From the sequence record NC_102531.1: DNA of 64,000 nucleotides. One strand, written 5' to 3'. The translations under genes and the position numbers were made by a program. Positions 17,106 to 19,535 of the stretch are shown here, in pieces (positions within the stretch are counted from its first letter, which is position 1; each line of letters starts with the position of its first letter). This stretch comes from a phage. Below the pieces are notes generated by a model, which searched no databases, was not told the DNA's origin, and saw only the letters and a program-made list of their open reading frames with translations.

Positions 17106-18194
17106 TTAGATAAAACGCTTGAACATAGAAGGTGATGAGATTGATGGAATCACACAAGGAAGTGCTACCTCCTCTTTCTCCAGGAAATTAATCGCAGAAG
17201 CTACACAGTCAGCCCAGTCGTCTTTTCTGTTAAATGTTGATCTTTCCCCGTTGAATTTTTCAAGTTCGGTCAGAAATGCTTCCAGAGTATCAGGATGGAA
17301 ACTGGATTTTACAATCCTTACCATTCCTTGTTGGGCAAGATTGGCAAAAGGTGAGAACCTTGTCAGTTTAGACTTGTTGGAAGGCATTGGGTCTTCTTCA
17401 ACCCTAAACCCTTCGGCAAGCAAGGATCTGGAGGAGGTTAAGAACTCACTCTTACCTGCCTGACCGGGGTCCACAGAGAATACGATTATACAATCATCAC
17501 CATCAAACTGCGCCTGTTTCCTGATGATCACATCTCGTTCACCAGCCTTTTTACAGAACTTACCTTCCAGACCTGTGGAATACCTCCCGTCATCCACGTT
17601 CTCAGGACAATAATCCCCGGACAGGTAATAAAAGCCGTCGCTATCTTTACTTACCTTAACACTGGCGGTAAAGTCAGGAAATTTATTACCGGAAGTTCTC
17701 TCGGTTCCTGCTTTATCCCATGCCCTGCAAGACACTGATCCAAGGGGTACTCTATCGGCATCACGAAGGAAAGATCTTTGAAAATAGTTTGCACCCTCAG
17801 GCTTTGCAAACCAGTTACCATGGAGAAGCTGAGCTTTTTCAAGCTCGGGCAGACCTTCAAGGAAAGCAAGGTATTCTGGGTTGTCTCTCAAGCAGACAGG
17901 ATTATCGAATATTGTTGCGCCTATAAACGAGAATGACAACGGTCTCGGCTTGATCTCTACACCCAGTCCGTTAACAGTGGTGTATTTCTCTATCAACTCT
18001 TCTTTAGAGTCTCCCCAGATAAATTCACCGTCGCGTCGGATAAAATATCTTTTCTTACCGCATTTCTCCGGATCTGGATACCCCTCATCGTCCAACCACC
18101 ACCTAACCAGTTTGGCAAGCATGTGTTCTGAATCGGGGTTACAGCTGATAACCATTCTTGATGGATACTTTGACTGAGATCGCAGACGAGACAT
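17106..18194 (-). CDS. terL: terminase large subunit, exon 2 (nuclease domain)
   Basis: 362-aa ORF; frame is open only about 12 codons upstream of the first Met, so it cannot be contiguous with the ATPase exon; follows the Walker A/B exon across an intron. Confidence 0.75.
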   Translation of the reverse strand: MSRLRSQSKYPSRMVISCNPDSEHMLAKLVRWWLDDEGYPDPEKCGKKRYFIRRDGEFIWGDSKEELIEKYTTVNGLGVEIKPRPLSFSFIGATIFDNPVCLRDNPEYLAFLEGLPELEKAQLLHGNWFAKPEGANYFQRSFLRDADRVPLGSVSCRAWDKAGTERTSGNKFPDFTASVKVSKDSDGFYYLSGDYCPENVDDGRYSTGLEGKFCKKAGERDVIIRKQAQFDGDDCIIVFSVDPGQAGKSEFLTSSRSLLAEGFRVEEDPMPSNKSKLTRFSPFANLAQQGMVRIVKSSFHPDTLEAFLTELEKFNGERSTFNRKDDWADCVASAINFLEKEEVALPCVIPSISSPSMFKRFI

Positions 18195-18209
18195 CAGGTA
18201 GTCTATCTG

Positions 18210-19109
18210 CTCCCATTCGAATTGTGTCGTTTATGTTCGGGCAAGGTCGCTAGTCTTGCCCCGCCATTTTCAGGCAGCTGCATGTCTCCATGCAGACCAG
18301 ACTATATCTTATGAATGTGTAAATACTCTGCCGCTCTAAGAATAGTTTCCTCATCTTCTTGGAAGAAACCTAAAGCTCTGTTGCATTTATCACAAAGCAA
18401 CCCTCTTACAGCACCAGTTTTATGGTCATGATCAACACAAAAGAAATCTCTGTACCCTTGCATCCTATACTCATTAAGAGATATTCTACAAATGGCACAC
18501 TTATGATCTTGATCTGAGAGTAGACGATAGTATTCATCTTTTGTTATGTGAAATTTCTTCTCAATCTGATAAAACTTTTCACACATCTTACACCTGTTCG
18601 TAACCAGATATACTTTACCATAGTCACGTTTTGTGTAAAAACTATCAGCGAGCATACTTTCATGACAAGATTTGCATTCAAAAAGTTCACCTTTCTTCAG
18701 CAAGTCTTGAATAAACAATGCTGCGTCATCTCTCTTAACCATATTTTTATTTTTACGAGATCCACCCTTCCTGTAGTACATATAGCATTCCTTGCATGTA
18801 CCTGAGTATCCATCCTTGCTCTTAGATGATAAAAAGAAATCATCAATAGGCAGAACTCTTTGGCAATCCATACATTTTTAGTATTACACATTCACCCTCC
18901 CGTTTCGAATCGCTTGATTCTACGTCTTTCGACTAGTCGTTGAACGTTCATCCTCTCGGATGCTTCGCTGCGGATTATCTAAATTAACACACTGTTACCC
19001 TACCTTCGATCTCTCTTCGAAGCCTCTATTATGTTACCATAACAGGTTGGTGGTGTCAATAATAAAGATTTCCCCGCAATTAGGGAGGTTTTACGAGAGC
19101 TACAAATTA
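18210..19109 (-). mobile_element. group I intron interrupting terL (boundaries approximate)
   Basis: About 900 nt between the Walker B exon (ends ...MVCFDEG then stop) and exon 2. The 5' part contains strings resembling group I core elements (TAATTGCGGGGAAAT, AATCCGCAGC, GTTCAACGACTAGTCG); an HNH ORF lies in the 3' part. Confidence 0.6.
18302..18871 (-). CDS. intron-encoded HNH / endonuclease VII-family homing endonuclease
   Basis: 189 aa with CAICRISL...[25 protein letters not shown], the Endo VII-type Cys-DHDH-GxVRGLLC-CN signature; sits inside the terL intron. Confidence 0.7.
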   Translation of the reverse strand: [189 protein letters not shown]

Positions 19110-19535
19110 ACCCTCATCGAAGCAAACCATGGTGTACTCAAGACCCTGATGGTTAAGCTTATCTTGCACATACTCCATATGGCAGTATTTTACAACAGCT
19201 CCCTTTTTGCTTCTATCCCACTTACCAGTGTTCGGATCAAACCGTGGAAAAATGAACTTATGATCCTTCTCTCTGAACTTTGGCTTAATGTTTTCAGGCA
19301 GATCACTATAAATAGCTACTGCTTTAGGCCATAGTCCACCCTCACCTTCCAACTGTGGGGTTGTTCTTCGGAACATAACCACAGAGCTGTGTGGGTCATC
19401 AATAATTTTAAGTGGCATCAACTGCAAGAGGAACGACTTGCCAGACCCTGCGGCACCGCCGATTACCAAGATATCTGCATCGTTTTCGAGGATCATCTTC
19501 TGCTTTTCAGAACACGGTCCGTAAATCTTAGACAT
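19110..19535 (-). CDS. terL: terminase large subunit, exon 1 (ATPase domain)
   Basis: Walker A GGAAGSGKS and Walker B-like ...MVCFDE at the exon end; in-frame stop lies immediately inside the intron. Confidence 0.8.

Follow-up and report, generated by a model that had tools for sequence, protein, structure and literature searches.

The window analyzed here, a 64,000-nucleotide stretch of phage DNA (sequence record NC_102531.1), belongs to Vequintavirus, the rV5-like coliphages, and over positions 17000-19600 it is 97-98.6% identical to dozens of GenBank phages. This interval holds terL, the gene for the large terminase subunit, in two open reading frames (ORFs) with an Endonuclease VII (Endo VII)-type gene between them; all features of the locus lie on the minus strand. 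A preliminary description of the DNA had attributed the split to a group I intron and had taken the endonuclease as the mark of a mobile element. The first of these claims is borne out by intron-less homologues, which hold one continuous 515-aa TerL that is 99.8% identical to the joined exons. We consider it about 95% probable that terL of this phage is split one codon past Walker B by a T4 td-type group I intron 882 nt long, which carries an Endo VII-type homing-endonuclease gene in its P8 loop.

The terminase exons and their junction

Exon 1 occupies 19110..19535 and comprises 142 codons, as read from the ORF list and from a Pfam match to positions 2-104 of the Terminase_6N profile; with its stop the ORF spans 19535..19107, that is 142 aa and TAA. 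It contains the Walker A motif GAAGSGKS at residues 27-34 and the Walker B motif MVCFDE at residues 136-141, both of which had been noticed before. The exon does not end directly after DE, as had been stated, but with ...VCFDEG, its last codon being GGT for Gly142. The TAA stop (19109-19107) consists of the intron's first three bases, and the U at 19110, the last base of exon 1, is the U of the 5' splice site.

Exon 2 covers 17106..18227 (373 codons and a stop), opens with ACA CAA TTC (TQF...), and matches positions 111-211 of Terminase_6N followed by Terminase_6C. It thus holds the remainder of the ATPase domain as well as the RNase H-like nuclease domain, so that the earlier label of a nuclease-domain exon has to be dropped. 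The 362-aa ORF at 18194..17106 that had been given as this exon is real, but it starts 33 nt (11 codons) inside it. We rejected the ATG at 18194 as the exon start, because intron-less alleles hold 11 further conserved codons upstream of it and the intron ends at G 18228. The insertion therefore does not sit at the boundary between ATPase and nuclease; it lies within the ATPase domain, one codon past Walker B. Since the Pfam matches on both exons are complementary in profile coordinates, the two pieces are complementary halves of one protein.

Joined at 19110 and 18227, the exons encode a TerL of 515 aa, whose residues 1-515 align in one tblastn piece, at 99.8% identity, with nomine (MN850649) and MiataMamis (PP925834). 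In these phages and others terL is uninterrupted, 515 aa long and free of the intron, and an uninterrupted terL ORF was found in 9 sampled intron-less relatives. Because these relatives hold one continuous terL, the junction is fixed to the base, and the homologues reveal a single gene instead of two separate ones. The DNA of intron-less alleles has the sequence ...GATGAGGGC/ACGCAGTTCGAA... (the slash marks the junction) and that of the window ...GATGAGGGT[882 nt]ACACAATTCGAA.... The predicted spliced junction is ...GATGAGGGT/ACACAATTC..., which would give the junction peptide ...VCFDEGTQFEWEQ... in TerL. Removal of the intron restores the uninterrupted, conserved terL frame, and the product in its spliced form has tblastn matches in 1470 phage records.

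A td-like group I intron

The intron itself spans 18228..19109 (882 nt, where about 900 nt had been estimated), as defined by an Rfam RF00028 match and by boundaries taken from intron-less relatives. It begins with UAA, an in-frame stop, and ends with the omega-G at 18228. The intron-less alleles set the position of this base, whose homologue in T4 td is the last G of the intron. The group I-like core strings reported before turn out to be part of a genuine full-length match. A covariance scan of 17900-19400 by E-value places RF00028 (Intron_gpI) at 19119..18278 with 44.3 bits and an E-value of 1.2e-9 over the full model (1-253), and the same match is found in a search of the whole window with an E-value of 5e-8. 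In the cmscan alignment the endonuclease ORF appears as an insertion of ~560 nt in the P8 loop. The ORF-less allele of the same intron, 319 nt long and present in naswa, EI-SP-GF and rV5, reaches 84 bits (E 8e-21; gathering score 50), so the scan is positive for both forms. The 3' end of the cmscan match, 18278, was rejected as a splice site, since the Rfam model stops at P9, after which P9.1 and P9.2 follow as in T4 td. An intein was likewise rejected in view of the in-frame stops and the RNA core.

The helices of the ribozyme can be assigned one by one. P1 (19095..19115) pairs exon GAGGGU and intron UA with the internal guide UAGCUCUC in 8/8 pairs, with a wobble between U(19110) and G(19100) at the 5' splice site, and is also present in the cmscan alignment. 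The 5' core (18896..19088) contains P3 (CCUCCC/GGGAGG), P4, P5 with two extension hairpins, P6/P6a, the 5' strand of P7, P7.1 (GUC-GAAA-GAC, 18933-18924), P7.2 (GAAUC-AAGC-GAUUC, 18920-18907) and the 3' strand of P3. P7 forms between GACUA (18938-18934) and UAGUC (18304-18300). P8 (18313..18893) is a 10-bp stem of GAAUGUGUAA (18893-18884) and UUACACAUUC (18322-18313) with 10/10 pairs, built from the first and last codons of the endonuclease ORF, which forms its loop. The ORF-less alleles have a quite different P8 hairpin of 18 nt, so that the difference between the forms extends over the entire P8 arm. The 3' part (18228..18304) comprises the 3' strand of P7, P9 (18295-18278), P9.1, P9.2 (18261-18239) and the omega-G at 18228.

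A direct pairing check found P1, P3, P4, P5 with its extensions, P6a, P7, P7.1, P7.2, P8, P9 and P9.2 to be fully complementary. An unconstrained minimum-free-energy fold of the ORF-less allele recovered the non-pseudoknotted helices, and the peripheral GUAA hairpin of the P5 extension carries a compensatory change from U-A to C-G among relatives. In the Michel-Westhof classification P7.1 and P7.2 are criteria of subgroup IA. Judged by its sequence, the intron is T4 td-like with subgroup IA features.

The likeness to the T4 td intron, a member of subgroup IA2, extends to both ends. Both introns start with UAAUU right after an exon ending in ...GGGU, which creates an in-frame stop, and P7.1 and P7.2 are present in T4 td as in the window. 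The last ~80 nt are ~82% identical and collinear through the 3' strand of P7, P9, P9.1, P9.2 and the terminal G; this 3' segment is also ~82% identical to other phage introns. The two differ in their host gene and in their cargo, a GIY-YIG enzyme in T4 td and an Endo VII-type ORF in P8 here. In T4 td the I-TevI ORF is located in the P6a loop. Splicing and homing of T4 td have been proven by experiment, whereas the window's intron is known from its sequence.

An endonuclease gene interwoven with the ribozyme

The endonuclease ORF as it reads in the window covers 18302..18871 and encodes 189 aa of the Endonuclease VII / His-Me finger type (Pfam PF02945, E 1.6e-21), in agreement with the Endo VII signature that had been recognized in it. 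Among sequences of PDB structures it matches T4 endonuclease VII (E 9e-5) and Hpy99I (E 7e-6), with which it shares the CxxC...DHDH...CxxCN zinc-binding beta-beta-alpha-metal motif. The zinc/His-Me core CAIC...VDHDH...CDKCN is kept and four further CxxC motifs lie upstream; three Cys4 zinc sites are predicted in the protein. Compared with T4 Endo VII (gp49) and Hpy99I, the protein has ~100 extra N-terminal residues that include these four additional CxxC motifs. T4 Endo VII acts in the resolution of Holliday junctions and Hpy99I in restriction, whereas the protein of the window sits in an intron, and this placement points to a putative sequence-specific homing role. Its nearest relatives outside Vequintavirus are 30-45% identical and are mostly free-standing "endonuclease VII" genes of T7-like phages, Pseudomonas phages and actinobacteriophages.

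The ORF is interwoven with the ribozyme core. Its stop codon UAG (18304-18302) forms the first three bases of the P7 3' strand, and its last codons form the 3' strand of P8. Alignment with relatives places the native start within 18875..18900, where a Shine-Dalgarno (SD) sequence GGAGG (18900-18896) in the 3' strand of P3 precedes an ATG at 18891 in the 5' strand of P8. With SD, AUG and stop inside ribozyme helices, a transcript should be able either to fold as the ribozyme or to be translated into the endonuclease, but not both at once, since folding should occlude the translation start.

In the window this start is disrupted. The A-run at 18879-18875 is A5, as opposed to A6 in 29/29 ORF-bearing GenBank relatives, including DrSchubert and HdK5; the region measures 102 nt in each of the 29 and 101 nt in the window, and none of them is 100% identical to it. 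With one A restored, the ORF encodes a protein of 196 aa, the length found in relatives, which is 100% identical to that of phage inoa. As it stands, the SD-linked ATG at 18891 does not share the frame of the Endo VII body and opens an ORF of 64 aa. ATG 18871 is left as the sole start for the body; it lacks an SD, and with this start Cys7 is lost, so that the first CxxC (CMDC, residues 7-10) is broken. Either the A5 run is an error in the sequencing of a homopolymer, or the gene was inactivated by a very recent mutation.

These observations favor, as a possible but not the preferred view, an intron whose ribozyme is intact but which is no longer mobile, its endonuclease being untranslated or inactive and in early decay. 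Loss of the endonuclease does occur, as the ORF-less versions are common (23 records). On the other hand, errors of sequencing or assembly classically take the form of a one-base difference in a homopolymer; the other 189 codons are intact and 98-100% conserved, which would make any inactivation very recent; and a start at ATG 18871 might still yield an active enzyme. This alternative opposes nothing in the split of terL by an intron. It competes only with the earlier view of the endonuclease as the mark of a mobile element.

Distribution of the intron and its exon flanks

A census of terL in 120 near-identical phage records found the intron in 52 of them, with the ORF in 29 and without it in 23. 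An even sample of 58 full-length records, sorted by the DNA length spanned by the first 1200 nt of coding sequence, separates the states further. Half of these records (29/58) have no intron, 11 hold only the first intron with its ORF, as does the window, 6 hold the first intron without ORF, and 12 carry a second intron, alone or with the first and with or without its own ORF. The state of the window is the commonest intron-bearing one among its relatives. Such patchy presence of intron and ORF among phages that are ~98% identical fits mobility.

The exon flanks vary along with the intron. A probe of 59 nt from the window's spliced junction matched 51 records at >=99% identity in split pieces, which are the intron-bearing alleles, and 66 records in a single piece, all at <=95% identity. 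All 66 intron-less alleles differ from the probe at three or more of the 59 nt and read GGC or GGA before the junction and ACG after it, and all intron-bearing alleles have GGT at the splice site. No empty site with GGT/ACA CAA flanks occurs among the 66 single-piece records. Junction sequences were compared directly for 16 alleles, and U at -1 is found in all sampled intron-bearing alleles and in no intron-less one. P1 requires a U at this position. A scan of IMG/VR for intron-less junctions adds little, with two contigs only, both of them GGC/ACG.

Synonymous variants in the exon flanks are thus completely linked with the presence of the intron, and the linkage remaining beyond the U fits co-conversion during homing or resistant empty sites, but may also reflect shared ancestry. 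It is conceivable, if rather unlikely, that the Endo VII-type endonuclease has selected for variants that resist cleavage, that the empty sites still in circulation are such variants, and that the frameshift in the window is the onset of endonuclease decay now that susceptible targets are gone. If true, the locus would offer a natural snapshot of the invasion, fixation and degeneration of a homing endonuclease in an essential phage packaging gene.

Predicted splicing and homing, and the remaining alternatives

In the mechanism that we favor, the pre-mRNA would fold into a ribozyme of helices P1-P9, in which the exon 1 end GAGGGU pairs with the guide and puts a U-G wobble where the 5' cut is made. 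Transesterification initiated by guanosine, followed by attack after the terminal G 18228, would then join ...FDEG to TQFEWEQ... and produce the 515-aa TerL needed for DNA packaging. In mixed infections the endonuclease would cut intron-less terL alleles, upon which the intron and short exon flanks would be copied. With the 1-nt deletion of the window the endonuclease would be cut off from its SD-linked start, and the intron may be unable to home at present. The sequence comparisons establish the boundaries, the ribozyme core, the family of the endonuclease, the patchy distribution and the linkage with synonymous sites in the flanks; splicing in vivo, as well as the activity and the target of the endonuclease, we infer.

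Several observations weigh against this reading. At the gathering threshold Rfam reported only tRNAs and missed the group I intron, whose 44.3 bits lie below the gathering score of 50; because the ORF-less allele scores so much higher, this shortfall is only the cost of the insertion. Pairing with exon 2 in P10 is weak by sequence inspection, at most ACA/UGU with a one-base offset from P1, and no convincing assignment of P10 was found. The flank polymorphisms could stem from lineage structure and not from co-conversion. Splicing would follow here from the viability of relatives with an identical ribozyme core, the activity of the endonuclease is predicted, and its native start is frameshifted in the window.

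A more radical doubt is that the intron is splicing-defective in this genome and terL a pseudogene, for instance in a defective or unverified assembly. The window does carry a substitution of its own in the peripheral extension of P5 (G at intron position 110, as against U in four relatives). We nevertheless regard this as very improbable, since plaque-forming isolates such as DrSchubert and HdK5 have P1, P3, P4, P6, P7, P8, P9 and joining regions identical to the window's, both exons are open, and the protein is 99.8-100% identical to that of relatives. Still less credible is a terminase of two separately translated halves with a free-standing endonuclease gene between them and no splicing, as in some T4-like phages: many GenBank records do list two 'terminase large subunit' coding sequences (CDSs) and an 'endonuclease VII', and an ATG is present at 18194, but we reject this arrangement because a complete group I core covers exactly the inserted segment, the insertion is bounded by U and G as splicing requires, the 11 conserved codons at 18227-18194 (TQFEWEQIDYL) would go missing, the ATG lacks a properly spaced SD, the ATPase domain would be severed directly after Walker B, and the ORF-less versions of 319 nt still interrupt the gene.

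Related introns and earlier work

The terL intron with its endonuclease is an already known element, described in the rV5 genome paper of 2013 and annotated in GenBank relatives. That paper (Kropinski et al. 2013, Virol J 10:76, PMC3606486) has a section entitled "Introns in terminase", reports rV5 terL in three segments with a homing endonuclease inside one intron, and credits D. Shub for the intron definition; the rV5 record DQ832317 joins the terL CDS from three exons. BASEL records such as DrSchubert (MZ501060; annotation method in PMC8594841) join two exons around a "putative homing endonuclease", which is exactly the configuration of the window, and the announcement of LL12 (PMC6658697) states that terL is disrupted by an intron. 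The only feature specific to the window that we can name is the 1-nt deletion at the endonuclease start.

In rV5 and other Vequintavirus phages the first intron occupies the same gene and the same insertion site, after GGT of ...FDEG, and its ribozyme is 98-99% identical to that of the window. DrSchubert, HdK5, inoa, APECc02 and 25 other records share the Endo VII ORF in P8, and the window stands alone among the Vequintavirus records in the A5 frameshift at its start. rV5 differs in that its first intron is the ORF-less 319-nt form and a second intron, with an I-HmuI-like HNH endonuclease, is present at codon 248.

The site of this second Vequintavirus intron is empty in the window, where alignment with occupied alleles locates it at 17910..17911 on the minus strand (codon 248, GATI/FDNP). 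It is occupied in rV5, HdK5, PDX, A112b and phiWec193, either by a form of 979 nt with an I-HmuI-like HNH gene or by one of 268 nt without ORF (A112b). The Intron_gpI score is 87.5 bits for the ORF-less form and ~35 bits for the form with ORF. Here, too, the flanks differ, with ACC AT before the site in occupied alleles and ACA AT in empty ones. Scanned with Rfam by E-value at a permissive setting, the full 64 kb of the window yielded no second group I intron; in LL12 the DNA polymerase gene is also interrupted by an intron (PMC6658697).

Similar arrangements are found in other phages. Pectobacterium phage CB7, a Certrevirus of the same subfamily (Vequintavirinae), has a terL intron with an HNH gene, and its splicing was demonstrated by reverse transcription PCR (Buttimer et al. 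2020, PMC7344957). Lactobacillus phage LL-H carries a group I intron in terL (Mikkonen & Alatossava 1995, as cited in PMC3606486). Both are group I introns in the large terminase gene of other phages, likened here by description only. In Aeromonas phage phiA019 (OM033135), whose TerL is 43% identical, a group I intron without ORF lies at 550-778 (108.9 bits). By sequence reading it interrupts the Phe codon that immediately precedes the DE of Walker B, so that its site is 8 nt upstream of the one used in the window, and the phiA019 record divides TerL into two terminase CDSs. Introns appear to have targeted Walker B more than once. A two-piece tblastn match in Acinetobacter phage BS46 was discarded, as it is annotated as one continuous ORF and reflects an in-frame insertion, not an intron.

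Neighboring genes and database records

The stop codon of the o-spanin gene shares bases with the start codon of terL in the sequence TAATG (19533-19537, minus strand), and a short way upstream, at 19819-19822, the o-spanin gene is in turn overlapped by that for i-spanin. The spanin genes are probably translationally coupled to the terminase gene, as described for rV5-like phages.

Farther on, a tRNA cluster at 20639-21451 contains six ordinary tRNAs (Pro, Met, Thr, Ser, Tyr, Arg) and a tRNA-like gene of 99 nt at 20884-20982 on the minus strand, which ARAGORN lists as 'atcc', tRNA-???, without an assigned anticodon. Rfam gives it a tRNA score of 35.5 bits, and its fold (z = -3.7) is a cloverleaf in which the D stem has 6 bp and the variable arm is long. 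Many Vequintavirus records contain it with 100% identity; in rV5 it is unannotated and in Murica it is labeled 'tRNA-OTHER'.

The search with 17000-19600 also returned 18 GenBank records of the series MG0656xx that are titled 'Campylobacter phage', several of them UNVERIFIED and unannotated, at >=98% identity to terL of E. coli Vequintavirus. They are classified as Vequintavirus, and it looks as if either their host labels are wrong or the phages are contaminants.

Implications

The intron of the window leaves the current understanding unchanged. It is of value for annotation, as in many GenBank relatives two fragments called "terminase large subunit" and a gene called "recombination endonuclease VII" stand in place of one spliced terL and an intron-encoded homing endonuclease, and default Rfam thresholds miss the intron because of the ORF insertion. 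The locus is a textbook case of an essential gene with a selfish intron at its most conserved motif, Walker B. The states found side by side among near-identical coliphages, with no intron, an intron only or an intron with its ORF, and with one or two introns, would make them a convenient natural system for the study of homing dynamics.

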